Below, in pieces: positions 2,954 through 27,533 of a stretch of 32,000 nucleotides of DNA. This DNA is from Candidatus Lokiarchaeum ossiferum (GTDB taxonomy: Archaea; Asgardarchaeota; Lokiarchaeia; Sigyniarchaeales; Promethearchaeaceae): positions 1,200,001 to 1,232,000 of the forward strand of contig CP104013.1 in NCBI GenBank assembly GCA_025839675.1, written 5' to 3'. The notes below the pieces were generated by a model. That model made no database searches and was not told the DNA's origin. It saw only the letters and a list, made by a program, of their open reading frames with translations. The position numbers and the translations under genes were made by a program. The first letter of the stretch is position 1. Every line of letters starts with the position of its first letter.

Positions 2954-3742
2954 TTAAAACAAATAGGACATCACGTCATTAACAAATTTCACTTCCGATT
3001 CTAACCAAGCCGGATATTCTATGGGATGTGTTCCGATCATTTTCTTATTTCGCAAATACACAAATCGAAATGCTTCAATGATGATATTTTTTGCATAAGG
3101 GATGTAAGTTTCCACTTTGGCTTTAATACGTTCAGTTAAGGCGATTAAGAGAGAATTCAATACAGAAAATTCAATTTGACTTTTAGATTGTAAGAAAACC
3201 CGATTACGCTTTTCATCATAATAGAAATCTTCAGAATTATCCATTTCTACCGAACGAAGAATGTAAGAGATTTGGGTGAGAATTTCTTGACTCAAAGCAG
3301 ATTCGATGTAGTTTTCTAAATCATCAAAAATTTGAGAATATACTTCGAGTAAAATATTGCGCTGATTCTGGATATCATCCACAGCTAACACACGCTGAAT
3401 GGTTCGGATAAAATTTTTTTTTTGAACCGGTTTAACCAGATAGTCTTTCGCCCCATTATGCAATGCATTAATTACGGTCTCTTGTTCATCCAAGGCACTT
3501 AACATTACGATTTTCGCAGCGGGATCTTTCTTAATAATCGCTTCGATTGCATCTAATCCGTTCATTTCAGGCATAACAACATCGCAGATCATCAAATCTG
3601 GTTTTAATTCAAAATATTTTGCAATAGCTTCCTTTCCATTAGCAGCTTCCCCGACGACATCATATTCAAATTCTTTTAATAAGTTTCTAACCAATTGACG
3701 CATAAATAAGGCATCATCGACAATTAAGATTTTCGCAGCCAT
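2954..3742 (-). CDS. CheY-like receiver (REC) domain protein with an unrecognised ~140-aa C-terminal domain
   Basis: N-terminus KILIVDDALFMRQLV...DLMICDVVMPEMNG...VMLSA...DYLVKP is a canonical REC domain. Residues ~122-262 match no family I recognise. Last gene of the che cluster, 10 nt after cheD. Confidence 0.85.
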   Translation of the reverse strand: MAAKILIVDDALFMRQLVRNLLKEFEYDVVGEAANGKEAIAKYFELKPDLMICDVVMPEMNGLDAIEAIIKKDPAAKIVMLSALDEQETVINALHNGAKDYLVKPVQKKNFIRTIQRVLAVDDIQNQRNILLEVYSQIFDDLENYIESALSQEILTQISYILRSVEMDNSEDFYYDEKRNRVFLQSKSQIEFSVLNSLLIALTERIKAKVETYIPYAKNIIIEAFRFVYLRNKKMIGTHPIEYPAWLESEVKFVNDVMSYLF

Positions 3743-3752
3743 TCATATCACC

Positions 3753-4268
3753 TTAGATTTTTTTCATATCCTTACCGATTTTTTTAACAATGAGAACCCC
3801 ATTATCACAATTGAAGAGGATGGTTCTGCCCTTATCACCCAAGCAATCTTCGGCTTTGAGGGGAATTTTATGTTCTTCTAGCATTGCTTTTACCGCTTCA
3901 ACATTTCGTTTGCCAACATCAAAACGAGAGAAATTAAACATTTGAGCCCCTCCAGCAATTTTTGCAATGATTCGCGTTTTTTTGGCCCCCGCTTTTTCCA
4001 TATAATCAATCAATAGTGGTACTGCGGTGTTAGCAAATTTCCCTGGATTAAATTTCTTGTGATTTCGAATCGCATTACTGTCAGGCAACATGATGTGACT
4101 TAACCCTCCAATTTTAGTTATGGGATCCCATAAAGCAATTCCAACACATGAACCAAGTCCAACAGTTATTAACAATGTATCTGCTTTGCCAAGACTCATT
4201 TCAGAAATACCAATGGTGATTCGATTCGATTTTTGAGTTTGAACTGTTGTTGTAGACATTTTTTCCAT
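3753..4268 (-). CDS. cheD: chemoreceptor glutamine deamidase CheD
   Basis: 171 aa with GLGSCVGIALWDP (catalytic Cys) and GLSHIMLP (His), typical of CheD. Sits 6 nt downstream of the CheC-containing gene. Confidence 0.85.
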   Translation of the reverse strand: MEKMSTTTVQTQKSNRITIGISEMSLGKADTLLITVGLGSCVGIALWDPITKIGGLSHIMLPDSNAIRNHKKFNPGKFANTAVPLLIDYMEKAGAKKTRIIAKIAGGAQMFNFSRFDVGKRNVEAVKAMLEEHKIPLKAEDCLGDKGRTILFNCDNGVLIVKKIGKDMKKI

Positions 4269-4274
4269 CCCCGT

Positions 4275-5927
4275 TTAGAGCCCCATTTCTGATAACATAC
4301 TTGTAATTGATTCTGGAATTGGTAATATCAAAATATATCCTTCAATTTTCTTTTTCTCCACAATGATATCAGTGTTCAAAATTAAGGCAGTATCAACTTT
4401 TTCTTCCAATTCGATTTGGATAAAATCAATGACAGATCCAAGCATATCATAAGCCAAACTTGGAGGGCTAGGAATCATATGCAGCCCGGTAAATTCCGAT
4501 AGAGCGGTCAAATAATGACTTCCTAAAATATTCGCAATTTCCATCAATGCAGATTCATCCATCTGGCCTAAAGGCTCATTCGTTTCTAATTCCTCTTCAG
4601 GACGTTCTTGAAACAATAATTGATCGGATAATCTCAATGCGCTGGATTTCTTAAACACCAGCATCATATACATTGATACATCTCCTTCAACACCCAAATA
4701 GATGGCAATGGTCAACTGATCAGAACCCCCAAGTTTTTCTGAGAGAAATTCAGTAGGAACAACATCTACCCGAGGCACTGAGATATCAACCCGTTTATCG
4801 ATCATGGTGGAAAGGGCCGTTGCCGCATTTCCAGCTCCAATGTTTCCAATTTCTTGAATTAAGCTTCTTTGCATCTCATCTAAATCTTCGAAAGTTGTGT
4901 CCCGTTTTGTTGTAATGTTATCATATTGTGCATCCGGCAAGACTAATTTTCCTAAGGGAACTTCTTTTGGAGTTTCCAGAGTGATTTGAGGAGTATCAGT
5001 CTTTTTCCGAACGATCACACGTTTTACTTTTCTTTTCTTTGGTTGAACATCCACTTTTGAGTCAGTAGTATTGATTTTTAGTGCTTCAACATTTGAAGAA
5101 ACAGCAACTTTTGGTGATAAATCCATGGAAATTTTTGGTTGCTCTGATTTTGAATTAAAATTGATATTTAATGTGGAATCTTGACTTTGACGAATTTTTT
5201 CGATTATTTCCATTTGGCGTTCCTTAAAGGTATCATCAATTTTAGTTGATTTACTATTTGTTTGAGTAGTGAGCTTTGCCTGGAGGGTCGAGAGAATATC
5301 ATCTTTCTGTAAATCTTTCATTTTGAGAATTTCTGCTCGTATCTTTTCCCGCTCTTCATTTAACATCGTGGCTTTTCTTTCAACAATGCGCTTTATAATC
5401 GATTCTTCCTTTTGTTTGGCGACTAAATTAAGTACTTTGGCAATATCAAGTAACAGAATAAAATCAGAATCTCCATGAGCCTTATTAGCAGAAAAACTTG
5501 ATTCTTCAAAATTTTGACCTGTTTCGTTAAGTCCCAATCCCACCAAATAATTGGCATCAATATTATTGACAAGATAACGAGGTCTTGGCTCAATATTATG
5601 GGAAGAGAGAAGCATTACTTCTGAAACGGAATCAACCACCAAGCCAGAGATTTCATCACCAAACTCAACGATTAATACCCTCCCATCCTCTTTATATTCT
5701 GTCACATCAAAACTCAAACGTTTCCGAAGGTTTACAACAGGAATGATTTGACCTCTGAGGTTGATGACGCCCATAATATAATCTGGACAATTTGGAACTC
5801 GTGTAATATCATCCAATCGGATGATATCCCGAATCTGATAAACATCGATTCCAAAATTTATATTCTCAATCTGAAATCGGACTATTGGAATTTCCGCCAT
5901 CATTATTTGCGAATCTTTTATTGACAT
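4275..5927 (-). CDS. CheW domain - K/E/S-rich linker - CheC phosphatase domain fusion protein
   Basis: aa ~10-170 are CheW-like (FGIDVYQIRDI...INLRGQIIPVVNLRKRL...LLLDIAKV). aa ~345-550 are CheC-like with two copies of the S-x3-E-x2-N-x22-P active-site motif (S355..P385 and S459..P489). Confidence 0.85.
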   Translation of the reverse strand: MSIKDSQIMMAEIPIVRFQIENINFGIDVYQIRDIIRLDDITRVPNCPDYIMGVINLRGQIIPVVNLRKRLSFDVTEYKEDGRVLIVEFGDEISGLVVDSVSEVMLLSSHNIEPRPRYLVNNIDANYLVGLGLNETGQNFEESSFSANKAHGDSDFILLLDIAKVLNLVAKQKEESIIKRIVERKATMLNEEREKIRAEILKMKDLQKDDILSTLQAKLTTQTNSKSTKIDDTFKERQMEIIEKIRQSQDSTLNINFNSKSEQPKISMDLSPKVAVSSNVEALKINTTDSKVDVQPKKRKVKRVIVRKKTDTPQITLETPKEVPLGKLVLPDAQYDNITTKRDTTFEDLDEMQRSLIQEIGNIGAGNAATALSTMIDKRVDISVPRVDVVPTEFLSEKLGGSDQLTIAIYLGVEGDVSMYMMLVFKKSSALRLSDQLLFQERPEEELETNEPLGQMDESALMEIANILGSHYLTALSEFTGLHMIPSPPSLAYDMLGSVIDFIQIELEEKVDTALILNTDIIVEKKKIEGYILILPIPESITSMLSEMGL

Positions 5928-5946
5928 TTTTATTCGACCTATTTAT

Positions 5947-7050
5947 TTAATTTTTCTTTCTTTGTTCTTTCTTATTCAATTTCCTAATAAACGTTATAAT
6001 ATGTTGTGGAATATCATAGAGGGGAGCCACCATATCGGCGTACGGAGCAGCCATCTTGGGCATACCAAATACAACGGAGGTAGATTCATCTTCGGTAATG
6101 ACATACCCTCCCACATTCTTGATCAGATTGGATCCTCTTGATCCATCGCGACCCATTCCAGTTAAGACTACTCCCACAATATTGTTTGGGAAAATAGCCG
6201 CTGCTGATTCAAATAAATAATCTGCATTGGGTCTGACCCCGAGCATTTTTTCGCGTTCATCTAATTGAATACGAAAAAGGGGAAACTTACTTTTGGGATC
6301 TTTGACTATTGTCATATGAAAATCTCCAGGGGCAACATAAACATGGCCATTTTGTATAATTTCATCCTGACGGGCTTCAGAAACGGGTAAAATTGATAAT
6401 GAATTTAACCTATCTGCAAATGATTTTGTAAAACCTGATTGCATGTGTTGAACGACTAAGATAGGACAGTCAATATTAATAGGTAGATTTGGAATCACTT
6501 CTACCAAAGCTCGAGGCCCCCCTGTAGAAGAGGCAATAACTAAGATTTTCTCAATAAATTGATTGGTACTCCTATTGGAGGATGAAGGTTGAAATGATAT
6601 AGGACCACGAGAAATAGCTTGAATCTTACGTATTTTTGCTTGTACTGCTGATCTTAATTTGTTTAATATCTCCACTCGAATAGAGTTTAAATCTAACGAA
6701 ATTTCACCGCTTGGCTTGGGAACAAAATCAATCGCACCTAATTCAATAGCTTTAAATGTTGATTGTGCTTCTTTCTGACTGTAGGCACTCAGCATTATGA
6801 CAGGTCGGGGATATTTGTTCATGATATTATACAATGCTTCCAATCCATTCATAATGGGCATTTCAATATCGAGCGTTACTACATCAGGATTATAGATACG
6901 CACTTTGTCAAGCGCTTCATTTCCATTACGTGCTGTTGCAATCACTTTAAACTGAGGATCTGAATTTATTAAATCCGAGATTATTTTCCTCATAAATACC
7001 GAATCATCAACAACCAACACGTTATACATTTTCAATCTCCATTTTTTCAC
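5947..7050 (-). CDS. cheB: protein-glutamate methylesterase CheB (REC + methylesterase)
   Basis: REC domain (VLVVDDSVFMRK...VVTLDIEMPIMNG) plus esterase motifs ASSTGGP, VVQHM and GMGRDG. The start may instead be the internal Met at 7029 (MYNVLVVDD). Confidence 0.9.
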   Translation of the reverse strand: MKKWRLKMYNVLVVDDSVFMRKIISDLINSDPQFKVIATARNGNEALDKVRIYNPDVVTLDIEMPIMNGLEALYNIMNKYPRPVIMLSAYSQKEAQSTFKAIELGAIDFVPKPSGEISLDLNSIRVEILNKLRSAVQAKIRKIQAISRGPISFQPSSSNRSTNQFIEKILVIASSTGGPRALVEVIPNLPINIDCPILVVQHMQSGFTKSFADRLNSLSILPVSEARQDEIIQNGHVYVAPGDFHMTIVKDPKSKFPLFRIQLDEREKMLGVRPNADYLFESAAAIFPNNIVGVVLTGMGRDGSRGSNLIKNVGGYVITEDESTSVVFGMPKMAAPYADMVAPLYDIPQHIITFIRKLNKKEQRKKN

Positions 7051-7066
7051 AAGTTTTTACTCTAAA

Positions 7067-9196
7067 TTAAAAAAGCGAACTAACATCAATTATAAGAGCC
7101 ACTTTTCCATCACCCAAAATTGCTCCACCGGAAACACCTTTAACACCTTTTAGCATTCCTCCCAGTGTTTTAATAACAATTTCTTGTTGCCCAATAAGAT
7201 TATCTACCAATAAACCAACTTCCATTCCACCCCTTTCAATTACAATGATGGTTTTCATCGGAAGTGTGTCTAATTCTTTATCTTTTTCATTTTGGTTTTT
7301 GAATTGGACCAATTCACGGAGTCTCACAATGGACACAATTTTACCAAGGATAGTAATAACTTCCTTATTTTTAATCGTCCGAATTTCCTCTTCATGAATT
7401 ACAATTGTGCGAACGACATTATTAATGGGAATTGCATAGGTTTCTTCATGATCGAACTGTTTAGCACCCAAACTCACCAGAAGAGATTTGATTATTGCAA
7501 CCGTCAACGGCAATTTCAATCGAAAAGTAGATCCTTTGCCCATTTTGGACTCAACATCTACAATACCACCTAACGCTTCAATTTTTTGCTTGACAACACC
7601 TAACCCCACACCCCTGCCACTAATTTCAGATAACTTGTCGGCCGTACTGATCCCCCCCCCTAATAATAAACGTTTGGAGTCGTAATCCGTCATCTTTTCC
7701 GCATCTTCAGCGGTAATTAAGTGTTTTTCGAGCGCTTTTTCTTTGATTTTGTTAAAATCAATTCCTTTCCCATCATCAGAAATTTCAATAACAACGTAAT
7801 TTTTATCCCGATACGCAAGCAATTTCAAGGAAGCGATCTGATTCTTTCCAATCTTTTCACGTTCATCAGGCATTTCAATTCCATGATCAATTGAATTGCG
7901 CAGTAAATGAACAATAGGGTCTCCAATTTGATCAATAATTGTTCGATCTAATTCAATATCTCGCCCTTCCATGGAAAAATCAATCAACTTCCCTAAAGAC
8001 TTGGTTAAATCGCGTACCATGCGAGGAAAACGATCAAAAATATGAGAGACTGGAATCATTCGCATTTGTAGTACTTCTTCCTGCAAATCGAAGGTAATCC
8101 TATTGATTAAATTTAAAGTTTCATTTAATTCAGCAATATTATAAGTTTGAGCGACTTTGTCTAATCGGATTTTGGAAATCAATAATTCCCCAGTCATATT
8201 CATGAGGTTATCAAGATGTTTGATGGAGACCTTTACATTTTGAACGGAAAAATCTTTATCTTTCGACGTTTTATTGGATTTATTCTTCTTTTCTACAGCC
8301 GTTTCCGAAGATAACGATTTCTTCAACAATAATATATCAACTGTCTCAACAGCTGCCACACTTTCAATATCTTGCTGCAAATATTTGATTTTTTTATCAT
8401 TATCAATGAACACAATAATACTAAATTCCGTCCCAAAGTTTTCTTCCTTGAGATCCGCTTCATCCGGAATCATTCGATAGATTGTGCCAAAATCTTTCAC
8501 CTTTTTAACACACAAATAGGCTCGAGCATATTTCATCTCTGTTTTTTCAAATAACTTGATCTGAACCAGATAAACTGACTTGTTTTCTTGGGTTATTTTA
8601 TTAATTGCTACAATATCCTCATCTATCAACATCAATTCATCCGCAAACTGATCGAGCAATTCTTCAGTACTATTAATTTGCGGTATTGTGTCGAGCGCCT
8701 CAAAGTTGCTTGATATCTCTTCAACCTCGCCTTCCCCTTTTGATTCGGATATTAATGGTTCATCATCAGTATTTTCATCACCATTTTTTTCAGAATCATG
8801 TTTACTCGAAAGCTTGTTGATATAGGCATCGAGTTTGTTTAAAATGCCACTATAATCGACACTCGATTCATCACCATTCTCAATTTCCCCAATCGAATTG
8901 TCAAGAACATCCCGACATTCAAACAGCAGACTCGTCGTCTCTAAATCTGCCAGATGCCCTTGATTTTTAATAATATCCATAATATTTTCCATTTGATGGG
9001 TAAGGTGTGCAAAATCATTAAAACCCATTGTGGCCGCCATACCTTTCATCGTATGCGCCGTACGGAACATATCTTCTACATATTGCAGGTTCCCAGGATC
9101 TTTTTCCAAGGCAAGAATCTGTCTATCCAATTCCTCTAACCGATCCTTACTTTCTTCCAGAAAAAGGTCTTTATATTTGTCCATATTTTGTCCCAT
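7067..9196 (-). CDS. cheA: chemotaxis histidine kinase CheA
   Basis: Hpt (FRTAHTMKGMAATMGF), dimerisation region, HATPase boxes (HLLRNSIDHGIE, DDGKGID, SGRGVGLGVV) and a C-terminal CheW-like P5 domain. Confidence 0.92.
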   Translation of the reverse strand: MGQNMDKYKDLFLEESKDRLEELDRQILALEKDPGNLQYVEDMFRTAHTMKGMAATMGFNDFAHLTHQMENIMDIIKNQGHLADLETTSLLFECRDVLDNSIGEIENGDESSVDYSGILNKLDAYINKLSSKHDSEKNGDENTDDEPLISESKGEGEVEEISSNFEALDTIPQINSTEELLDQFADELMLIDEDIVAINKITQENKSVYLVQIKLFEKTEMKYARAYLCVKKVKDFGTIYRMIPDEADLKEENFGTEFSIIVFIDNDKKIKYLQQDIESVAAVETVDILLLKKSLSSETAVEKKNKSNKTSKDKDFSVQNVKVSIKHLDNLMNMTGELLISKIRLDKVAQTYNIAELNETLNLINRITFDLQEEVLQMRMIPVSHIFDRFPRMVRDLTKSLGKLIDFSMEGRDIELDRTIIDQIGDPIVHLLRNSIDHGIEMPDEREKIGKNQIASLKLLAYRDKNYVVIEISDDGKGIDFNKIKEKALEKHLITAEDAEKMTDYDSKRLLLGGGISTADKLSEISGRGVGLGVVKQKIEALGGIVDVESKMGKGSTFRLKLPLTVAIIKSLLVSLGAKQFDHEETYAIPINNVVRTIVIHEEEIRTIKNKEVITILGKIVSIVRLRELVQFKNQNEKDKELDTLPMKTIIVIERGGMEVGLLVDNLIGQQEIVIKTLGGMLKGVKGVSGGAILGDGKVALIIDVSSLF
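7652..7660 (-). repeat. G9 homopolymer (C9 on + strand) inside cheA, encoding Gly-Gly-Gly
   Basis: tga tccccccccc taa on the + strand encodes LLLGGGISTA just upstream of the G2 box. It is the longest G/C run I found in the window. Confidence 0.9.
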
Positions 9197-9245
9197 ATTC
9201 GTGCATCCTCTCTTCCATCAATGCCTACCAAAAAATATCCTGAAT

Positions 9246-9608
9246 CTAATGCAAAACTTTATTTACCGCTTCCAACACTCGTGCAGGTTTGAAGGGTTTG
9301 ATCACAAATTCTTTCGCCCCGGCTTCGATGGCCTCAACCAACAATCCTTGCTGCCCTAAGGCCGAACACATGATTATTTTGGCATCCGGATCATACGCAA
9401 TTATTTGTTTAACTGCCTCGATCCCATTATCCCCCGGCATCACGACGTCCATGGTAACGAGCGAAGGACTCAATTCTTTATATTTTGCAACGGCTTCGGC
9501 TGTATTCTCTGCCTCTCCCGCCACTTCAAAGCCATTAGAGACCAGAATATTTTTAATCATCATTCGCATGAATTTGGCATCATCTACGATTAAGACTGTC
9601 TTTCCCAT
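9246..9608 (-). CDS. cheY: chemotaxis response regulator CheY
   Basis: MGKTVLIVDDAKFMRMMIKNILVSNGFEVAGEAENTAEAVAKYKE...VTMDVVMPGDNG...IIMCSALGQQ...FVIKPF closely resembles Bacillus-type CheY. I trimmed the 159-aa track ORF to the Met at 9608; the Met at 9623 is an alternative. Confidence 0.88.
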   Translation of the reverse strand: MGKTVLIVDDAKFMRMMIKNILVSNGFEVAGEAENTAEAVAKYKELSPSLVTMDVVMPGDNGIEAVKQIIAYDPDAKIIMCSALGQQGLLVEAIEAGAKEFVIKPFKPARVLEAVNKVLH

Positions 9609-9814
9609 TGTAATTTTCACCATGTCATATATTCGGCAAAGGAGACCAACTGAATGACTCCAATCCCCCCAGTATTTAAAAACACATGAGATCGAGTCGG
9701 GTCCAAATTTCCGAAATATAATCAAGTATTAAGGAAGATTAATTCAACGACAGTTTAAGAATGTGGTTTTAGAAAGGTTTTGAAAAGGTTATCAAAAATA
9801 TTGTAAAAGTTTTG

Positions 9815-9822
9815 AAAAAAAA
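9815..9822 (-). terminator. oligo-T (T8) tract 14-21 nt downstream of the CheW-tail gene stop
   Basis: An A8 run on the + strand gives T8 on the coding strand just after the TAA at 9836-9838. Archaeal terminators are typically oligo-T. Confidence 0.35.
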
Positions 9823-9835
9823 CTAAATATCAAGT

Positions 9836-11152
9836 TTATTGAGAATGATCAATAATAATTTCAGGATGGTTTTCTTTGAGATAGTCAAGAATAGTTGAAA
9901 CCATGGTGGCTTTTTTCATTTTTTTAGTCAAAGAGAGATTCTTATATTCATTGAATTGGGCGATAATTTTAGCTTTGGTTAATGAATTCACATATTTTTC
10001 ATAATGTCTAACTAATTCATCGGTCAATTCTGGTGAAGGTTGTGTATTTTCGTTTACTTGATTAGCCGAAGCGGCATTCTTCTTAGAGTCAACAGCAGCA
10101 ATTAGAGCAGCAACATCATCATTGTTGATAGTTGTATCATCTGGAGCATCCAACAGATCAGCAGTCGCATCAACTGCAGATTCGTTATCGCTTTCAGCAG
10201 CTGCAATAAGGGCAGCAACATCATCATCAATATCATCTGATGGAGATGTTATATCTCCAGAAGAGTCTAGGAGTTTATCATCGGCAGGCGCTGAAATTTC
10301 ATTCCCATCTTCATCAACATACACATATTCCACACCGTCTTCTTCCGGTAATTCTTCCCCTTCCTCAAGATAAACAACTTCCTCTTCTTCAGAAGATTTT
10401 TGGAGATTTATCCCAAGTTCTTCTTGGATTTCCCGTAGGGCAAGTTTACGGATCATCGCTTTTTCTTTTTCTAAGTATTTTTCTTTCGACATGGTAGTAT
10501 TAGAAGAATAATTCATAGAAGAAAAAGCAGGATTACCTTCTTCAGCAATTATCGCCTGTGAAGCAGCAAGACGTCGATTTTCAGTTTGTTTCTCTTTGTC
10601 ACCCCGATTTTTATCGAGAAAGGACTTTATTTCGTGTTCTCTTCCAAAAAGCATCCCTAAATCTTCCAATTCATCCCCGGAAAATATTTTACCGAGATCC
10701 AATAAGATGATTAATCGTTCTCCTTCTTCTAAATTTCCTACTCCAAGCAGATATTCTTGCTCAATTTCTAAGGACAGAAGATTATCTGGAACAGGCTCGA
10801 TCTTCGTGAAGGGTAGGCTTAAAACTTCAGAAACATTATCAACAATCATACCTAGTAAGAAAGGTTGGAAATCTAATACAATGATTCGCATATTTTCTTC
10901 ATTAACGGTATTAAGCGGTAAGTTAAATCGTTTTCTTAAATCAACTACCACTAACGGTTGCCCTCTATAATTAATAATTCCTTCAATGAATTTAGCAGCA
11001 TAAGGTATGTTAGTAATATTTTGCATCCTAAGAATCGAATCTATCTTCTTTATATCAATTCCAAACTCTTCGGAGCTTAATTCAAATACAACCAATTTAA
11101 TTGAATCAGAATATATCGATTGCGCCATCAAAATTTCACATATAAAAAACAT
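9836..11152 (-). CDS. cheW: CheW-domain protein with ~270-aa acidic low-complexity C-terminal extension
   Basis: aa ~15-160 are CheW-like (FGIDIKKIDSI...INYRGQPLVVVDLRKRF...LLDLGKIF). The rest is D/E/S/A-rich with a duplicated DDVAALIAA segment and a helical C-terminal end. The start is 11152 or the Met at 11128 (MAQSIY). Confidence 0.8.
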   Translation of the reverse strand: MFFICEILMAQSIYSDSIKLVVFELSSEEFGIDIKKIDSILRMQNITNIPYAAKFIEGIINYRGQPLVVVDLRKRFNLPLNTVNEENMRIIVLDFQPFLLGMIVDNVSEVLSLPFTKIEPVPDNLLSLEIEQEYLLGVGNLEEGERLIILLDLGKIFSGDELEDLGMLFGREHEIKSFLDKNRGDKEKQTENRRLAASQAIIAEEGNPAFSSMNYSSNTTMSKEKYLEKEKAMIRKLALREIQEELGINLQKSSEEEEVVYLEEGEELPEEDGVEYVYVDEDGNEISAPADDKLLDSSGDITSPSDDIDDDVAALIAAAESDNESAVDATADLLDAPDDTTINNDDVAALIAAVDSKKNAASANQVNENTQPSPELTDELVRHYEKYVNSLTKAKIIAQFNEYKNLSLTKKMKKATMVSTILDYLKENHPEIIIDHSQ

Positions 11153-15643: not shown

Positions 15644-18592
15644 TTATTTCTTCGTTTTGCGCGGTCCAATCAAGGCAGTTACTAATTGCGGAATATCACG
15701 CAATTTCAACATTGTCTGGGGTGGAACTCGAAGTGATTTTCCAATTTTTTGAATTGATAAAAGAGCATAAATAATCCCTTCGAGATAATCGATAATATCG
15801 CCAGGAAACATGCGAACTTCATATTCATCTTGAAAAGTATCTACAATTTCAGAGATACTCATCCCAGAAAGGCGATAATCAAAAATAAATCCTTCAACAT
15901 TACGTTTCCCACAATCACAATAAGGATTATCATCACAGGCACAGTTAAATATATCTTCCGACCAGGCCATGATGACATTATATAACCGGCGATTGATCCT
16001 TCCATGTTTTTTCTTTCCCAAGTGATCTGCACTGATCATGGAGAGGACGGAAGTTGAAAAGAAATTGTTGGATCGGGATTGTTTTTCATTTTTCATGCTT
16101 AATTCTGCGAGAATTCGGTTGGTAACGTAAACATTATTAAATTTATCAAGATGTTGAGCAATAACTAACATATCGGGAGCAGGTACAGTTTCTGAAACTG
16201 GAACAAGTAATTTTTTGCGAATTTCCAAAGCTTGTTCCAATGAAAAAAATGATTCTGCAGTCGCTTGACCAAATCGTGTTGTTCGATATTCCGTATTATT
16301 ATTGATAGCCTTGATAAATCGATTAGAATGTAAAAATATCAAAGCTTGATGAAGATCAAAGTCACCATTGTACATCATAGCATGAAAATATTGTAAATTC
16401 TCTTTTGAAATCCCATGTTCTTGATCTCTTTGGGAGGAATACATTGCGATAATTGCCAAAACTTCCAAAAACATTCTATCTTCATTTGGTTCAAGTTTTA
16501 ATGGTTCAATTTTGCCCTTAAGTAATTTTAAAGCGAGTTGCTCTTCCGTATCACTTTGATTCCCGGCATTCGTTTTTCCGGGCGATACAAGAAGATATAC
16601 TGTTCCTTTGTCATGTTTTTTCAACCTACCAGCCCTTCCAGACATTTGTTCAAATTCTGCAACCGTTAGTTGTTGAATTCCCATGATTAGATTAAAGAAA
16701 ATGACATTACTTGCAGGAAAATCCACCCCCGCAGCAAGAGCGGCCGTAGTAACAACACAAGCAATTTTTTGCATTTCAAAACTTTTTTCGACAAATTTCC
16801 GTTGCCCATACTCTAAGCCTCCATGATAGGCGTAAGCGGGAACATGGTTCGCACGCAAAAAATCTGCAAATTTTTCGGTGTTTTTACGAGAGTTTGTGAA
16901 AACTATGGTTTGACCTCTGAATCCAAAGGACGAACGGGTTTTATATTCTTCCCGAATAATATTTCGCATATTCTTCATTTTTGCATTTTCATCGATACAC
17001 ATTACTAAATGACGTTCGAGTTCGACCGGTCTGTCTGTATAATGAACTAAAGCAGCCCGTAAATGCTTAGCTAAGCCTTTTGGATCCGAAATTGTTGCAC
17101 TCAAGTAGAGAAATTGAGCTTTTGGTAAATAAAGACGAAGACGAGCGATCATCCCATCCAGAATAAAACCTCGTTCAGCATCAGCAAGCATTTGAATCTC
17201 ATCGATAACAATGGTTCTAAAATCCCTAAGAAGATGGGGATGAGAACTCCTTAGAAGAATGTCAATCGCTTCATATGTGGCAATAACAACATCAGCTTTT
17301 CCAAATTGACCAAATTCATCTTTGACATTCGATTTCCGAGAAATGTGTGACACCCCTACTTTTAAAGCAGAATTAACCCCATATTTTTTAAATTCTGCAT
17401 ATTCTCTGTGACGCATATTTGCCAAAGCCACAATTGGAACGACATAGAGCATGCGAGTCCGAGTACGGGTATTTTTCAATTTTTCAAGATACGATTCTTG
17501 CTCTTTTGTTAATTTTTGTTCGATTTTTGAGTCAAATAAGGTATCCTTGGAGTCAAATGGATTGGAAATCCCTTCTTGTTTTAAAAATTTTATTTTATCT
17601 TCCAAAATTTTCGAAATACCTGCAAGTTCTCCAATCATGGTTTTTCCTGAAGAGGTGGCAGAGACCACAAGTTCATCTTGCCGTTCTAATAATCCATTTT
17701 CAAGAGCCATGATTTGGGCAGGAAGTAAAGAAGTACGATGTTTTTCTTGATAGTATAATTTTAGGGGAGCAGGTAATGAAAAATCATAAATACTTTGTGG
17801 TTTTTGGGGGGATTGTTTAATTTTTTTCTTTTTAACTCCGACGAGCGTTGCTTCTCGATGATCAAGGATATTGAAATTTGGATTAAAGACATTAATCACT
17901 TTTACTACATCACGATAATTTAATAATAAATCGCGCAAATAGGTTTTTAAAGAGGAAGATACATCAATCTTCTGCTTTAAACTTGCAATCACTTCTTTTC
18001 CTGCACATCGCTTACATACATAAAACGCTTGATTTTTATAGCGTGTTTTTTCATCAATTAATGTATATTTTTTATCTTGCTTGCAAGAATGGCAAAAGAG
18101 ATAATTGCGAATTTCAGAGTATTGAATTGAACTGCAATAATCATAAATTGGCTGAAGCACTTTCAAATATTCATCCATTTGATGTTGTTGAACTTCATGG
18201 GCGTCAGTTTCCACTACTTGATATTTCTCCAAATTATGTCCTTGGGGTTTGTTCAAATGATTCCCTGCAATAATGAAGGTAGCATTTAAAATAAAATTAC
18301 GAAACTCGGTAGGATCGATTGGTTTTAATTGATTCTCAACATTTCTTGCTTTTAAATTACGTTTCCAAAATTTGAAGGGAATAAGAGTTTCTTTTTCAGG
18401 CTCTTTATCAAATAACACAAGTCCTGTGAAAAAAGGGCGATCTAAATAGCGAATTTCTCCATAGAAAATATCATCTTTAATCAGTTCAAAACAAATGACA
18501 TCGAAGAAGGGTTTTTTAGGATGCTCTTCATCTTTATCAAGAATAATAAAATATTTTTTTCGTTGGAGAATACCAGATAGTGAAGGACTCAT
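15644..18592 (-). CDS. Ski2-like SF2 helicase with N-terminal 4-Cys zinc finger (ASH-Ski2/Eta-like)
   Basis: CHSC-x22-CKRC at aa 167-196. Helicase motifs SATSSGKT (I), VVPIVALAN (Ia), DEIQ (II), LSAT (III), TTAALAAGVDFPA (V) and QMSGRAGR (VI). C-terminal CAC-x6-CDC cluster. Confidence 0.8.
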   Translation of the reverse strand: MSPSLSGILQRKKYFIILDKDEEHPKKPFFDVICFELIKDDIFYGEIRYLDRPFFTGLVLFDKEPEKETLIPFKFWKRNLKARNVENQLKPIDPTEFRNFILNATFIIAGNHLNKPQGHNLEKYQVVETDAHEVQQHQMDEYLKVLQPIYDYCSSIQYSEIRNYLFCHSCKQDKKYTLIDEKTRYKNQAFYVCKRCAGKEVIASLKQKIDVSSSLKTYLRDLLLNYRDVVKVINVFNPNFNILDHREATLVGVKKKKIKQSPQKPQSIYDFSLPAPLKLYYQEKHRTSLLPAQIMALENGLLERQDELVVSATSSGKTMIGELAGISKILEDKIKFLKQEGISNPFDSKDTLFDSKIEQKLTKEQESYLEKLKNTRTRTRMLYVVPIVALANMRHREYAEFKKYGVNSALKVGVSHISRKSNVKDEFGQFGKADVVIATYEAIDILLRSSHPHLLRDFRTIVIDEIQMLADAERGFILDGMIARLRLYLPKAQFLYLSATISDPKGLAKHLRAALVHYTDRPVELERHLVMCIDENAKMKNMRNIIREEYKTRSSFGFRGQTIVFTNSRKNTEKFADFLRANHVPAYAYHGGLEYGQRKFVEKSFEMQKIACVVTTAALAAGVDFPASNVIFFNLIMGIQQLTVAEFEQMSGRAGRLKKHDKGTVYLLVSPGKTNAGNQSDTEEQLALKLLKGKIEPLKLEPNEDRMFLEVLAIIAMYSSQRDQEHGISKENLQYFHAMMYNGDFDLHQALIFLHSNRFIKAINNNTEYRTTRFGQATAESFFSLEQALEIRKKLLVPVSETVPAPDMLVIAQHLDKFNNVYVTNRILAELSMKNEKQSRSNNFFSTSVLSMISADHLGKKKHGRINRRLYNVIMAWSEDIFNCACDDNPYCDCGKRNVEGFIFDYRLSGMSISEIVDTFQDEYEVRMFPGDIIDYLEGIIYALLSIQKIGKSLRVPPQTMLKLRDIPQLVTALIGPRKTKK

Positions 18593-22593: not shown

Positions 22594-23457
22594 TTACTTT
22601 TTTTCTCGTCTCATATATGATAAAAACGTGTTTTCCATTAACATTGCAATCGTCATAGGCCCAACACCACCAGGAACGGGAGTAATTGCGCTACATTTAG
22701 AGAAAACGGAATCATAATCCACATCACCAACCAATATTCCATCGTCAGTTCTGTTAATCCCAGCATCGAGTAATACTACGCCTTCCTTAATCCTATCTTT
22801 CGTTATGAAATTAATTTTCCCAACACCCACTGCAATAATATCTGCACGTTTTAAATGAAAGTCCAAATCCCGCGTATGTGAATGACACACAGTAACTGTT
22901 GCACTTCTATTCAGAAACATCATCACAATGGGTTTCCCAATAACATTTGTCCGATTAACAATTACGACTTCTTGGCCATCTATAGGAATATTATTCTCTT
23001 CTAAAAGACGAATCATACCTTTTGGGGTGCAAGATCCATAAGTTTCATCCCCGAATGTATTTAGTCCAATACTATTAGGATGAAATCCATCAACATCCTT
23101 ATCTGAGGCAATCATTTCCATCACTTTGGATTCATATTGTCGTAAGTGTTTTGGCAGAGGCATTTGCACTAAAATTCCATCAACAGTAGGATCTGAATTC
23201 AAAGATTCAATATGCTTGTAAAGTTTCTCAATTGAAATGTTTTCTGGAAATATTTTTTTAAAAGATCTAATTCCCACAGCATCACAGGTTTTATTTTTCA
23301 TATTGACGTAAACTTGAGAAGCTTTATCGTTTCCGACTAAAACAGTTGCCAATCCAGGAGGACGATTGAATTTAGATAGATTTTCGGTGATTTTTTGTTT
23401 CAAATCAGCCATTAATTTTTCCTTGAGTTTTCTACCATCCAATATTAACGGTTCCAT
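22594..23457 (-). CDS. folD: bifunctional methylenetetrahydrofolate dehydrogenase/cyclohydrolase FolD
   Basis: LATVLVGNDKASQVYVNMK, DGILVQMPLP, VDGFHP, VVIVNRTNVIGKP and the TPVPGGVGPMTIAML signature. Confidence 0.9.
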   Translation of the reverse strand: MEPLILDGRKLKEKLMADLKQKITENLSKFNRPPGLATVLVGNDKASQVYVNMKNKTCDAVGIRSFKKIFPENISIEKLYKHIESLNSDPTVDGILVQMPLPKHLRQYESKVMEMIASDKDVDGFHPNSIGLNTFGDETYGSCTPKGMIRLLEENNIPIDGQEVVIVNRTNVIGKPIVMMFLNRSATVTVCHSHTRDLDFHLKRADIIAVGVGKINFITKDRIKEGVVLLDAGINRTDDGILVGDVDYDSVFSKCSAITPVPGGVGPMTIAMLMENTFLSYMRREKK

Positions 23458-23554: not shown

Positions 23555-24703
23555 TTAGATTCGATTTTTATATTTATAAACTAAAATTCCAACAACTACA
23601 ATTAATCCAATAGAACCAATCCAGATTGCAGCAATCACCCACCCATTGCTTTCTATTTCCCATTTCTCTTCATTCATAACAGCTGATCGACTATCACTGA
23701 ATGCTTCAGAATCCAAAATTTGGATGGTGGAAACAGCATAATAGGAGAGTTTGGCAGAAGATGGTAAAGTTGATTGATCAGAGTAATCGGAAAAACCATA
23801 ATCCAAAGGATTTTGTCGATCTAATACCCAAGATAATGTTTCTGGATGAGTCTCAGATCCAATTAAATCCAAAATACTGACACTGTAGAATGTAGCCATC
23901 AAAGAACTTTGCACATTAGTTGTAGTTAAAGAATATCCTCCATAATGACGAAGATTATCACTTTCAGAAATATAATTTGCTTCAACGTATGATGCAATAG
24001 CCGTTTTCATGGTATCATCCACCAAATCCATCTGTCCGAGAATATTCAAAGCATCAAGAGCAAAATAGGTATCAATTAAAGATTCAAACCCTGTTGGACT
24101 TCCTTTAAAGGCTCCTGTTGATGCATCATAACAACTGATCAAGAAATTTGCGATTTTGGTAGCGTCGGTAGTTGAAGGAAGAGCACTCATAGTATCGGTT
24201 AAATTAAAAAATTTAACTGCAAATGCTGTATCTATAACATTGGATTCAATTGACTCTCCCCCTGCAAAACCGTTATCGATGGATGATAGGAAATTCTCAA
24301 TTTTTCCAAATGCACCATCAGTATTCAAGTCTTCAACTGATCCATTTGTCAATAATGCCCCTTCAAATGCATACACCATCTCAGGAATACGATTATTCCC
24401 TTCAATAAACAGATCAACTTTATCAGCGAACCAGTTTTTGGTAAGGGACAGGTCGGTACTTATTTTTTCGAATTCAGGATCAACAATACTCAGAACATAC
24501 ACATTCGAATAAGTGGTAAATTCAGTAATTTCTTCGGCAGTTCCATTAATCGTATCTGTAAATCCACCAGTTGGTGTCTGATTTTGGGCACAAAAATCTG
24601 CCAATAGTACTTTTCTAGGAGTTGCAGAAGAGAAATCCAACCCCAAAGCAGAAAGTGTAAAAATTAGCAATAGTAAACTCGTTAACATATTACGTCGTTT
24701 CAT
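23555..24703 (-). CDS. secreted, C-terminally membrane-anchored protein with prenyltransferase/terpene-cyclase-like alpha/alpha-toroid repeats
   Basis: N-terminal signal peptide (MKRRNMLTSLLLLIFTLSALG) and a C-terminal TM helix plus basic tail (WVIAAIWIGSIGLIVVVGILVYKYKNRI). Recurrent GGF/GAF/GGY/YGF repeat cores. Confidence 0.5.
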   Translation of the reverse strand: MKRRNMLTSLLLLIFTLSALGLDFSSATPRKVLLADFCAQNQTPTGGFTDTINGTAEEITEFTTYSNVYVLSIVDPEFEKISTDLSLTKNWFADKVDLFIEGNNRIPEMVYAFEGALLTNGSVEDLNTDGAFGKIENFLSSIDNGFAGGESIESNVIDTAFAVKFFNLTDTMSALPSTTDATKIANFLISCYDASTGAFKGSPTGFESLIDTYFALDALNILGQMDLVDDTMKTAIASYVEANYISESDNLRHYGGYSLTTTNVQSSLMATFYSVSILDLIGSETHPETLSWVLDRQNPLDYGFSDYSDQSTLPSSAKLSYYAVSTIQILDSEAFSDSRSAVMNEEKWEIESNGWVIAAIWIGSIGLIVVVGILVYKYKNRI

Positions 24704-24802: not shown

Positions 24803-26302
24803 CTACATGGATGGAATGATGTCGTGAAATTTGACGATCACTGAATCGGGATTTTTGGTAAATTGTTCATAAGTCACCATAAATTTTTTAAAACTCGGAA
24901 GAGCCCCTAAAATTGCAGCTCCCTTGAAAGAGGCATAAAAACGATCCTTTGGAGTAATTATTTTGATATCGTTCATCGTGGTATTTGTTTTTTTTTCTAA
25001 CAACGTAATTAAATCATTAATTTCATCTTCTGACCCATATTCCCCTTCAACTTCACTAGCGATATTAGCAAGCTCATCATCATCAATTGAAGTTTTTTTT
25101 ATCAGTTTTTTTTCCTTACGAGATAATTTATGATGAGATTCATCAAGGATTTCAATCTGATTTACTTCCAGACTAAATCCGCAATAAGGACAAAAGGAAC
25201 TTTCGTTTAAAATAACGATTTCTCCACATTTGGGACAATTATCTTCCGTTTTTTGGTTAAGTATTTCAGATGGTCTCTCAACTTTTTCCTCTGCATCTTC
25301 GATTTTCGGTTCATCTTCTTCTGGTGGAAAGGGTCCCAATTGGGGGAGAATTTTTTGAATTTCATCTACTAATCTAGGAACTAAGCCTTGCAGATAGGAT
25401 GATCCTCCAGAAAAGATTATTTTCTTCAATAAAGGACGCCAATAAAATGGATCTACTGCTCTTAATGAATCAATTACAGCTTGAGGTAATGCTGGTGAAT
25501 TCAATCCAATTAAACCCGGGTTAAATAATATTTCCCCACTCATAATTACTGATTGAGAATTAATAGTTAAGGGTTCTCCATCTGGTAAAGTAAATATTAC
25601 ATTATTTGCGGGATCGACAGAATCAGAAGTGGGATTGAGGGATATTTTTAAAACTTTTTCTTTAATCTCACGCACAATTTCCTTTTTTATAAAAATACCA
25701 TATTGTGTTAAAGCCGAAGCAAGTTGCTCTTCAACATCTATTCCCGCCAAATTCAACCTTTTAATGCTGGGAGCATAGATTTGACCATTCATGACTGGAG
25801 TTACATGGGTTAATCCACACCCCAATTCTATGGATAAACCAGTTGTTTCTCCTATTGAAAAGACCGCAGTTGTTGCAGAATCGAGCATAGCCACAGATTT
25901 GCACTTATGAGTTTCAAATAAGACTCGAGCAAAATATTGTGCAATGTCTGGGAGGGTTAATGGAGGAATCAAATAAATAACATTACAACGTGCAGGCGGA
26001 ATTCGTAAAACATTATAAAAAATGTGATTTAAAATTGCGAAATACTGATCCCAATCCATCACATTCCCACGTTTTATTGGATAATCTAATTTGAGAACAC
26101 CACGCATTCGAATAGTATCATTTCCGACATAGATATCTTGAGTTTGGCCGCCTGCCATCTGTTGATATTTGGGTTTGCCGGTCACGGTAGGAAAAATAGA
26201 ACGAGGGGTTTCTTCACCTGCAAATCCTACTTTTGTCGAACCTTGACCAATATCGATTATTATTGTATATTCATTGCTCTCTTCATGTGTCTCTGTACTC
26301 AT
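24803..26302 (-). CDS. actin-family protein (Arp-like) with a ~120-aa insertion containing a CPKC-x11-CPYC zinc ribbon
   Basis: Aligns by eye along the whole length of eukaryotic actin: DIGQGSTKVGFAGEETPRSIFPT (phosphate-1), YPIKRGNVMDWD, ELGCGLTHVTPV (phosphate-2), LNLAGIDV, FSGGSSYLQGLVPRL (adenosine), IKIITPKDRFYASFKGAAILGAL. The insertion spans aa ~323-445. Confidence 0.9.
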   Translation of the reverse strand: MSTETHEESNEYTIIIDIGQGSTKVGFAGEETPRSIFPTVTGKPKYQQMAGGQTQDIYVGNDTIRMRGVLKLDYPIKRGNVMDWDQYFAILNHIFYNVLRIPPARCNVIYLIPPLTLPDIAQYFARVLFETHKCKSVAMLDSATTAVFSIGETTGLSIELGCGLTHVTPVMNGQIYAPSIKRLNLAGIDVEEQLASALTQYGIFIKKEIVREIKEKVLKISLNPTSDSVDPANNVIFTLPDGEPLTINSQSVIMSGEILFNPGLIGLNSPALPQAVIDSLRAVDPFYWRPLLKKIIFSGGSSYLQGLVPRLVDEIQKILPQLGPFPPEEDEPKIEDAEEKVERPSEILNQKTEDNCPKCGEIVILNESSFCPYCGFSLEVNQIEILDESHHKLSRKEKKLIKKTSIDDDELANIASEVEGEYGSEDEINDLITLLEKKTNTTMNDIKIITPKDRFYASFKGAAILGALPSFKKFMVTYEQFTKNPDSVIVKFHDIIPSM

Positions 26303-26393: not shown

Positions 26394-26780
26394 TTAATTT
26401 ATACTATCCTCGAATGATTTCTTGGCAATTTCTTGGTTGATGATCTGAGAAAAATGATCCAATCTCTCTTGCACCATGGAGAAAAGTTCCACTAGATAGG
26501 TGCCCCAGGGAGTAACTGTGACATTGCCCCCTCCACCATATCCACCTTTATGTGAAATTACAACTGGACGCCCAGTTTTCTTAGTAATTGATCTCAATTT
26601 AGACCAGCCATATTTATAGGAGTAACCTAAATCTTCACTTGTTCGAGTCAAGTTTTTGGTTTTTTGTAAAGATTTTATTAAACGAACATCTCCCGGACCG
26701 AGGGTAAAGTTTTCAAAGCCCTTCAACCACAGTTTTGTTCCAATCTGAAAAATAGCATCATCTTTTTTTTGGTCTCCCAT
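26394..26780 (-). CDS. ModE-N-terminal-like winged helix-turn-helix protein
   Basis: LGPGDVRLIKSLQKTKNLTRTSEDLGYSYKYGWSKLRSITKKTGRPVVISHKGGYGGGGNVTVTPWG follows the ModE/LysR-type HTH_1 pattern, including the Gly-rich turn. No TOBE domain. Confidence 0.6.
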   Translation of the reverse strand: MGDQKKDDAIFQIGTKLWLKGFENFTLGPGDVRLIKSLQKTKNLTRTSEDLGYSYKYGWSKLRSITKKTGRPVVISHKGGYGGGGNVTVTPWGTYLVELFSMVQERLDHFSQIINQEIAKKSFEDSIN

Positions 26781-26846: not shown

Positions 26847-27533
26847 TTAATCATCTTTGAGATGATTATTAAGTAAAGTATGGTTTTTTTCAACAAAATT
26901 TTCTCCGAAGCCTTTAATACTTTTGATTTTATCTGGGGAATTTAACAATGATTCAATAATTTCTATTGGATTATCAAAAGATTTTAACAATTTTTGAGCT
27001 TTCTTTGAGCCACAAAGGGTTAATCCTTCAATAAAAAATTGTTGGGCATCAGCTAAAAGTTTTTTTCGAGATTTTTGCCTTCCTACGTCGGGTATATGGT
27101 CTTTCACTTGTTCTCTAAAGGCGATACGAGTTAAAAATAAAAAAACATCATCCCAATTTCGAGCAGCGATTATTCCCGGAAATGAAAGATCACTAAGCGA
27201 TAAAAAATCTATGGAGAGAGATTGGAGAAAAAGACGTTTTTTTTCTTTGATTCGATTAAAACCGTTAAAAATAATAACGCCATTAGAATGAATTTCCAAA
27301 AATTCGTAAAGAGCTTCTTTAATCCTTTGCATTTTCTTCTCATTATCAATATCTTTTGATCCTAACAGAAAAACCCATCCCAAAGGAGGAATAAAAACCA
27401 AATTTGCCCCTAAATTCTCTATTCTTGCCTTTATCACATAGGACTCTAATAAATTTTGGTGAGTTTCAATTTCTTTTTGAAAGGATGTATCAAATGAAAT
27501 TAAATAAATTTTCTCGGTAATTGAGGATCCCAT
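26847..27533 (-). CDS. ERCC4-like domain + helix-hairpin-helix protein lacking the nuclease catalytic motif
   Basis: Collinear with the catalytic ERCC4 protein at 31260 onward: LISFDTS vs IIMDERE, ANLVFIPPLGWVFLLGSK vs GDYILSERIAVERK, VIIFNGFN vs IIILESPN, PGIIAARNWDDVFLFLTRIAFREQ vs IPLIPTKDEKETANFLLKLAKSEQ, FFIEGLTLCGSKKAQKLL vs YFLQGLVDIGKSTAEKYI. GDY and ERK are absent. Confidence 0.5.
   Translation of the reverse strand: MGSSITEKIYLISFDTSFQKEIETHQNLLESYVIKARIENLGANLVFIPPLGWVFLLGSKDIDNEKKMQRIKEALYEFLEIHSNGVIIFNGFNRIKEKKRLFLQSLSIDFLSLSDLSFPGIIAARNWDDVFLFLTRIAFREQVKDHIPDVGRQKSRKKLLADAQQFFIEGLTLCGSKKAQKLLKSFDNPIEIIESLLNSPDKIKSIKGFGENFVEKNHTLLNNHLKDD

Follow-up and report, generated by a model that had tools for sequence, protein, structure and literature searches.

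The window, a stretch of 32,000 nucleotides from Candidatus Lokiarchaeum ossiferum (contig CP104013.1, positions 1,200,001 to 1,232,000), contains on its minus strand a gene for a 499-residue actin-family protein interrupted by a long insertion with a putative zinc ribbon (Table 1). The protein matches UYP44711.1 (NEF87_000996) of Ca. Lokiarchaeum ossiferum B-35 with 100% identity, and the family of Asgard actin-related proteins (Arps) with a zinc-ribbon insert is here labelled ZnR-Arp. UYP44711.1 is one of three published L. ossiferum "ARP" homologues, and that publication covers them by phylogeny and reverse transcription quantitative PCR (RT-qPCR) only, with neither the insertion nor zinc mentioned there (Rodrigues-Oliveira et al., PMC9834061). 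The published RT-qPCR primers for UYP44711.1 map exactly to window positions 25937-25956 and 25607-25626. According to the same paper, lokiactin transcripts in L. ossiferum were severalfold above the ARP transcripts (PMC9834061).

The open reading frame named in the original prediction was present, and residues 12-321 matched Pfam Actin PF00022 (E=2.9e-66, 224 bits against a cut-off of 27). The top matches of the whole protein in a phmmer search of the PDB were eukaryotic actins (E about 1e-59), with a second matching stretch that placed query residues 447-489 on actin 328-370. The core was 33% identical to human beta-actin, the reference of the pairwise alignment, over 355 columns. The sole large indel was located between P322 and K326/I327, that is, in subdomain 3 (SD3) at the ALAPS/KIKII segments, and every other indel was of four residues or fewer, which agrees with the predicted end-to-end alignment broken by a single insertion. 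The AlphaFold2 (AF2) model, produced with the family alignment, had a mean predicted local distance difference test score (pLDDT) of 87.9 and a predicted template-modelling score of 0.77, and the actin core reached pLDDT values of 95-98, the segment after the insert included. Conventional actins ranked first in the Foldseek comparison against the PDB, with a TM-score normalised to the target of 0.87-0.93.

Table 1. Features of the ZnR-Arp gene and its surroundings in the window; residue numbers are those of the 499-residue protein.
Feature	Window position (nt)	Strand	Evidence
Whole gene: 499-aa actin-family protein with zinc-ribbon insertion	24803..26302	minus	ORF, Pfam Actin, match to UYP44711.1
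Actin core, residues 1-322: subdomains 1, 2, 4 and most of 3	25337..26302	minus	Pfam, phmmer, AF2, Foldseek
Phosphate-1 loop D17, G19, K24; phosphate-2 loop E159, G161, G163, H166; adenosine motif G299, G300	in residues 1-322		
Insert, residues 323-445 (123 residues)	24968..25336	minus	exact translation
Insert part 1, residues 323-352: Pro/Glu/Asp-rich linker (GPFPPEEDEPKIEDAEEKVERPSEILNQKT), predicted disordered, fast-evolving	25247..25336	minus	AF2, sequence differences
Insert part 2, residues 353-378: C4 zinc ribbon (EDNCPKCGEIVILNESSFCPYCGFSL)	25169..25246	minus	invariant Cys, Pfam, AF2
CPKC-x11-CPYC, Cys 356, 359, 371, 374	25181..25237	minus	
Ribbon Cys codons	25235-25237, 25226-25228, 25190-25192, 25181-25183	minus	
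Insert part 3, residues 379-394 (EVNQIEILDESHHKLS): conserved QIxI strand-like element, then site of the absent second ribbon	25121..25168	minus	alignment, AF2
Insert part 4, residues 395-445: basic helix (RKEKKLIKK), two acidic helices with [DE][FY] motif (EGEY), short linker	24968..25120	minus	AF2, alignment
Actin core, residues 446-499: SD3 strand and C-terminal helices of subdomain 1 (IKIITPKDRFYAS...), corresponding to actin 327-375	24806..24967	minus	
Upstream neighbour: 128-aa winged-helix protein, ModE N-terminal-like	26394..26780	minus	TIGR00637 ModE_repress E=2e-14, below cut-off
228-aa protein with C-terminal helix-hairpin-helix (HhH) part of Hef/XPF only	26847..27533	minus	NF010337 E=2.5e-8, far below cut-off; no nuclease-domain match
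Downstream neighbour: 382-aa prenyltransferase-like alpha/alpha-toroid protein	23555..24703	minus	Pfam Prenyltrans E=1.8e-13
FolD (methylene-tetrahydrofolate dehydrogenase/cyclohydrolase)	22594..23457	minus	Pfam THF_DHG_CYH E=1e-58
982-aa DEAD/Helicase_C protein with DUF5814 C-terminal domain	15644..18592	minus	weak SNF2-related matches
Chemotaxis cluster: CheY-like response regulator, CheD, CheW-CheC/CheX fusion, CheB, CheA, CheW-domain protein	2954..11152	minus	

The insert includes 32 D/E and 14 K/R residues, giving a net charge of -18, of which the linker before the first cysteine contributes -8, and the D/E/K-rich insertion with a CPKC-x11-CPYC zinc-ribbon signature was thus found as described. 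In the full-length model the ribbon (residues 351-380) had pLDDT values of 83-87 and formed short paired strands, while values fell below 50 at linker residues 340-350 and 382-393 and ranged from 50 to 79 in the helices (395-402, 408-421 and 425-439). When the insert was modelled by itself, the ribbon remained at 79-85 and the helices were raised to 81-88, so that the module looks autonomous in these models. Compared against the PDB, every match of the insert-only model had an E-value above 2; most of these matches were small Cys-rich metal domains (Nop10, NZF/RanBP2 fingers, ZRANB2, RING, the MDM2 zinc finger, rubredoxin, rubrerythrin and the RadD ribbon), with a local rmsd of 1.1-2.5 A over 24-28 columns. 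The paired strands of the ribbon and these superpositions lend indirect support to a clustering of the four cysteines around a metal. An intein or another mobile insertion was also considered as the origin of the insert, and was rejected because such motifs were absent, the GC content is similar inside the insert (0.336) and in the remainder of the gene (0.364), and all family members have the insert.

The Lokiarchaeial members have immediately after the ribbons a conserved basic stretch RKEKKL[IL]KKT/A, in the window protein at residues 395-403 (25094-25120, minus strand). By eye it resembles the LKKT motif of the actin-binding WH2 and thymosin-beta peptides. The stretch is predicted to be helical, lies before the amphipathic helix instead of after it and is absent in the Thor, Odin and Hod members; the likeness may be superficial.

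Conservation of the insertion in Asgard archaea

The full-length relatives returned by the protein search numbered more than 120 and measured 490-626 aa, and for the majority Pfam matches to Actin together with DZR or Zn_Ribbon had been precomputed. Among the lineages in their source names are Lokiarchaeota/Promethearchaeota, Thor-, Odin-, Hermod- and Hodarchaeota. Relatives were present in 237 genomes when one genome per GTDB species was scanned, every lineage-named record being Asgard. The idea of a lineage-specific oddity was thereby overturned: the insert is common to a broad Asgard family and already auto-annotated in databases.

Conservation was assessed from an aligned set of 106 homologues with overall identities of 38-77%. 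All members have 125-221 residues between the positions of actin 318 and 330, in comparison to 11 in actin, and no aligned member lacks the insert. The four cysteines C356, C359, C371 and C374 were invariant in 106/106 sequences, and since homologues this divergent all retain them, the motif is more than a chance occurrence. The spacing of the knuckles in the first ribbon was 9-14 residues throughout (106/106), with a CPxCG start in 78 sequences. Outside the ribbon, E421 was nearly invariant, the [DE][FY] motif was found in 105/106 homologues and the tail following the ribbons was acidic in 93/106. Also in the core segment after the insert G461, A462, I464, L465 and G466 were invariant or nearly so.

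Four CxxC knuckles, that is, two ribbons, were present in 99 of the 106 homologues, and some of these double-ribbon relatives carry precomputed DZR matches at E 1e-5 or better (e.g. P0032). The L. ossiferum clade (P0001, P0002, P0003, P0005, P0009 and P0014) has instead a clean gap of approximately 36 residues in the place of the second ribbon, with both flanks kept. Because of this gap and the prevalence of two ribbons, the single ribbon is a derived, reduced state; the double ribbon is ancestral and was secondarily reduced in this clade. In P0128 (486 aa), a distant member, there is likewise one ribbon only, its loss of the second being apparently independent. Across the family the insert has a median net charge of -3, against -18 in the window protein, and only in the L. 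ossiferum clade is the entire insert strongly acidic. Averaged over the family, ribbon 1 carries a charge of -1.5 and ribbon 2 one of +0.8.

The genuineness of the insertion had been set beforehand as a test of the finding. Two L. ossiferum assemblies share the in-frame architecture with a metagenome contig of 92% identity and with the closed genome of Promethearchaeum syntrophicum MK-D1, and it recurs among the relatives from the 237 GTDB species-level genomes, for which 80 loci were examined. The two L. ossiferum assemblies differed only by I334T and R343K, both within the acidic linker (residues 323-352). The metagenome homologue differed at 39 positions, of which 11 were within residues 334-349 and three in the ribbon. 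Such a distribution is the pattern that would be expected of a disordered linker beside a constrained domain, and no part of the protein evolves faster than this linker. ZnR-Arp is encoded in both of the Asgard strains that are in culture, L. ossiferum and P. syntrophicum MK-D1.

The window protein is named "Actin-related protein" in UniProt and "hypothetical protein" in NCBI, and relatives have been auto-named "(double) zinc ribbon domain-containing protein". Thus the gene, the family and the combination of Pfam domains are already in public databases, and the gene is already in a published tree. A full-text search of the literature, with subscription-only reviews (e.g. Stairs & Ettema 2020) outside its reach, turned up no paper that describes or characterises an actin-family protein with a zinc-ribbon insertion. 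Orthologues with the same insert were thus on record as sequences, and the insert itself was not found described; as far as was found, what looks new is an Arp with a metal-stabilised insertion domain, although a prior description is possible.

Nucleotide site and contact surfaces of the actin core

The equivalents of actin D11, G13, K18, G156, G158, G301 and G302 were invariant among the homologues, and K213 and E214 were kept in 100/106 and 103/106, respectively. The window protein has all nine residues. As the nucleotide motifs are conserved, ZnR-Arp is predicted to bind nucleotide. In actin, the hydrolytic water is positioned by Gln137 and His161. The position of Gln137 was occupied by S, T or A in 106/106 homologues (Ser in the window protein) and that of His161 by W, T or S in most, with His in 11/106 including the window protein, in which the catalytic pair of filament-forming actins is therefore incomplete, Gln137 being lost and His161 kept. 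Asp154 was replaced by Glu in 100/106, the position of Asp157 was variable (Cys in the window protein) and that of His73 was Arg in all members. The claim that all nucleotide-binding signatures of actin are kept was consequently right for phosphate-1, phosphate-2 and the adenosine glycines, but did not extend to the catalytic residues. From these substitutions ZnR-Arp is probably a poor hydrolyser.

Members of the Promethearchaeum clade (P0011, P0013, P0015-P0018, P0020, P0022, P0023, P0025, P0029, P0032 and P0036-P0038) have three cysteines in the phosphate-2 loop, CGLCTIC at approximately residues 167-174, as opposed to the single C162 in the loop of the window protein. The cysteines of the Promethearchaeum clade might form a redox or metal site beside the nucleotide.

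The surfaces that mediate contacts in actin differed in their conservation. The barbed-end hydrophobic groove was more conserved than the core, with a mean column entropy of 0.69 against 1.42 for the whole core, whereas the SD3 contact stretches 283-294 and 318-332 (entropy 2.0-2.3) were more variable than the core average. The PDG turn and the D-loop residues K45, Y46 and M49 were invariant or nearly so across the family, and in the hydrophobic plug 7 of the 13 consensus residues were the same as in actin.

Core identities were 31-33% to actin, 34% to yeast centractin/Arp1 and 34-35% to other Asgard actin-family proteins. By these values the ZnR-Arp core is about equidistant from the three. 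Among the best 150 matches of an exhaustive phmmer search, ZnR-Arp members scored at least 230 bits, and the next plateau, at about 180 bits, consisted of actins where names were checked, with yeast centractin at 155. P0189 was considered as lokiactin and rejected, since it is only 41% identical to actin and is another Asgard actin-family protein. Several library matches of 740-900 aa (P0122, P0127, P0131 and P0133) have two actin domains in tandem, look eukaryotic and are without a zinc ribbon; they inflate the bit-score ranking just below the ZnR-Arp family.

Gene neighbourhood

Gene order was counted in 80 species-level loci (L001-L088), using for each neighbour only the loci with enough flanking sequence. 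A homologue of the ModE-N-like winged helix-turn-helix gene was located upstream on the same strand in 65/67 loci, in some of them separated from the Arp gene by one for a CBS-domain protein. The toroid gene was directly downstream on the same strand in 71/74 loci and FolD further downstream, also on the same strand, in 65/70. Beyond FolD a DRG-type GTPase and the DUF5814 helicase were often present. The toroid proteins begin with a signal peptide, are rich in N-x-S/T sequons and have at the C-terminus a transmembrane helix with a basic tail of 5-8 residues, and a homologue search with the toroid neighbour gave only 12 close matches, all Lokiarchaeial.

The intergenic gaps around the Arp gene are approximately 100-300 nt, and the one between the Arp and toroid genes in the window contains a T8 run and a TATA-like TTTATAAA box (read by eye). 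These features suggest separate promoters for the two genes and make co-transcription doubtful. For finding a partner or pathway of ZnR-Arp, the conserved linkage is the most promising clue.

The DUF5814 helicase recurs within a few kb of the Arp gene in Hod- and Thorarchaeota loci (L005, 12642-13527; L006, 10495-11515). In P. syntrophicum the counterpart of the 228-aa HhH protein is adjoined by a full ERCC4-domain gene. The chemotaxis cluster of Table 1 lies farther away on the same strand.

Possible functions of ZnR-Arp

ZnR-Arp shows the pattern of an Arp: it keeps an intact fold and nucleotide pocket, its catalytic machinery is degraded, a new module stands in place of one polymerisation contact, and the groove that binds targets is retained. 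This pattern favours an end-binding or scaffold role, and the reading preferred here, at roughly even confidence, is an ATP-binding, Arp-like end-binder or scaffold in which the zinc module is a protein-docking surface, unlike the filament-forming lokiactin. The protein would bind ATP and hydrolyse it poorly or not at all. Because the pointed-end elements (D-loop K-Y..M and PDG turn) and the barbed-end groove are conserved, it would still engage an actin-like subunit or an actin-binding partner. In filamentous actin (F-actin) the SD3 residues 322-325 contact SD4 residues 243-245 of the adjacent subunit (PMC7247010). The 123-residue insert falls exactly in the loop 322-325, and the uninterrupted loop of filament-forming actins is absent. 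As the insert replaces this longitudinal contact, canonical filament propagation from the barbed face would not be expected. The zinc ribbon and the acidic helical tail with its [DE][FY] motif would then serve as a protein-docking adaptor, in L. ossiferum reduced to one ribbon and unusually acidic.

The comparison with eukaryotic Arps defined by insertions, put forward in the original prediction, proved apt. Nuclear Arp8 and Arp4 are likewise built on a complete actin fold, and lineage-specific insertions at its filament-contact "hot spots" block polymerisation and create docking surfaces. They bind ATP stably and hydrolyse it weakly or not at all, much as predicted for ZnR-Arp. In Arp8, which does not polymerise, Arg takes the place of His73, and the small insertion V is located on subdomain 3 at its barbed end (PMC3510490); ZnR-Arp similarly has an invariant Arg at that position and its insert on subdomain 3. 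That paper says nothing of a zinc-binding insert in Arp8 (PMC3510490). Arp8 and Arp4 also have several inserts, while ZnR-Arp has one large insert. The other eukaryotic Arps are not known to have a zinc-binding insert.

Lokiactin (UYP47028.1) is encoded by the same genome, belongs to the same superfamily with its four-subdomain fold and is included in the same published actin-family tree (PMC9834061). Lokiactin is reported to be 58% identical to rabbit actin (PMC12050087) and forms an F-actin-like cytoskeleton (PMC12050087, PMC9834061). ZnR-Arp differs from it by its identity of about 33% to actin, the absence of Gln137, the 123-residue insert and the lower transcript levels.

Several points weigh against the preferred reading. 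The ribbon of the window protein matched Pfam Zn_Ribbon_1, Zn_ribbon_3 and DZR at E=2e-4 to 8e-4, and all three matches were below the gathering scores (PF13240 21.5 against 25, PF13248 20.2 against 27 and PF12773 20.0 against 27.3). The long flexible linkers that flank the ribbon could allow the insert to loop away and leave the interface usable, and the conserved D-loop, hydrophobic plug and groove are equally compatible with polymerisation. The loss of Gln137 lowers the ATPase activity but need not abolish it, and the window protein keeps His161.

The strongest of the alternatives is a filament-forming actin paralogue, polymerising alone or together with lokiactin, with the insert looped onto the filament surface and the ribbons bundling filaments, attaching them to membrane or recruiting other factors. 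The conserved K45, Y46 and M49, PDG turn, hydrophobic groove and much of the plug would fit such a protein, as would the flexibility implied by the long low-confidence linkers on both sides of the ribbon and a core that aligns with actin throughout apart from the insert. This explanation is nevertheless considered unlikely, at perhaps one chance in four, since the insert interrupts the longitudinal contact at 322-325, the SD3 contact stretches vary more than the protein does on average and Gln137 is absent in 106/106 homologues. Also only one filament type was reported in L. ossiferum cells, attributed to lokiactin, the transcripts of which are severalfold higher (PMC9834061).

The original prediction had left open whether the insert would dock nucleic acid or protein. 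The acidic ribbon 1 and the acidic tail with [DE][FY] argue for a basic protein partner and against nucleic acid, so that only the protein half of that proposal is favoured. The corresponding alternative is an Arp of chromatin or nucleic acids, resembling nuclear Arp4 and Arp8, whose ribbons would bind DNA or RNA or else a factor sitting on DNA, and whose actin fold would serve as the ATP-dependent conformational switch of a nucleic-acid machine. It draws on the commonness of zinc ribbons in nucleic-acid proteins, a weak match to the N-terminal ribbon of TFS (E=0.005), the replacement of His73 by Arg as in Arp8 (PMC3510490), the ModE-like gene upstream in 65/67 loci and the presence nearby in the window of the Hef/XPF-like HhH protein and the DUF5814 helicase, the latter recurring in some genomes. 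It is thought improbable, however, given the acidity of ribbon 1 across the family and the net charge of -18 of the L. ossiferum insert, the absence of a conserved basic patch and the identity of the most tightly linked neighbour, which is a secreted membrane-anchored protein and not a nucleic-acid enzyme.

Little credit is likewise given to the view that the insert is structural filler in a generic divergent actin paralogue, the zinc site merely stabilising a tolerated loop expansion. The length of the insert (111-184 residues in the aligned insert region) and the linker sequences do vary widely, and the second ribbon has been lost in at least one clade with the gene apparently retained. The conservation of the ribbon-1 cysteines (106/106) and [DE][FY] (105/106) across Loki, Thor, Odin, Hermod and Hod members, together with the presence of the insert in every family member, on the other hand indicates that the module as such has been under selection. 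An artefact of assembly, frameshift or gene fusion is refuted, with next to no probability left to it, by the same architecture in independent assemblies, a closed genome, 106 aligned homologues and 80 genome loci and by the in-frame resumption of the actin fold after the insert at pLDDT 95-98.

Among other known systems, the ribbon of ZnR-Arp resembles Pfam DZR (PF12773) and Zn_Ribbon_1 (PF13240) in its paired CPxCG knuckles 9-14 residues apart, but unlike the typical members it is placed inside another domain instead of at a terminus, and in the window protein it is single and below the thresholds. An archaeal precedent by analogy is Haloferax volcanii CdpC, a dual zinc-ribbon anchor whose ribbon domains, with their zinc-finger motifs, bind the cytoskeletal polymer FtsZ1 and membrane, and the zinc ligands are required for its function (bioRxiv 10.64898/2026.07.16.738847). 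CdpC differs in being a small protein of its own whose target is a tubulin homologue, whereas the ribbons of ZnR-Arp are built into the cytoskeletal protein. The ROK-family sugar kinases combine the ASKHA actin-like ATPase fold with a Cys-rich zinc motif. ROK-type proteins are, however, metabolic kinases or repressors of a distant ASKHA branch, and their zinc motif is short, with no ribbon domain inserted in subdomain 3.

A more far-reaching form of the end-binder reading, for which the chances are judged slim, would make ZnR-Arp an ancestral Asgard barbed-end cap or anchor of lokiactin filaments, coupled to the cell envelope through the zinc and acidic module and paired with the toroid protein. 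If true, it would be an archaeal cytoskeleton-to-surface linker without a eukaryotic counterpart, and because the family occurs in Hodarchaeales-grade relatives of eukaryotes, the archaeal ancestor of eukaryotes would probably have possessed it, with its loss coming later.

So far the Asgard "ARPs" have been names on a tree. ZnR-Arp would be, as far as was found, the first described zinc-ribbon domain built into an actin-family fold. The four or eight zinc-ligand cysteines in a filament contact give a family that spans Loki-, Thor-, Odin-, Hermod- and Hodarchaeota a distinctive and easily mutated feature, and the conserved gene order offers concrete candidate partners. With the gene present in two cultured strains, it could be directly tested whether end-binders or adaptors of the Arp type already regulated actin before eukaryotes arose, and through which chemistry.

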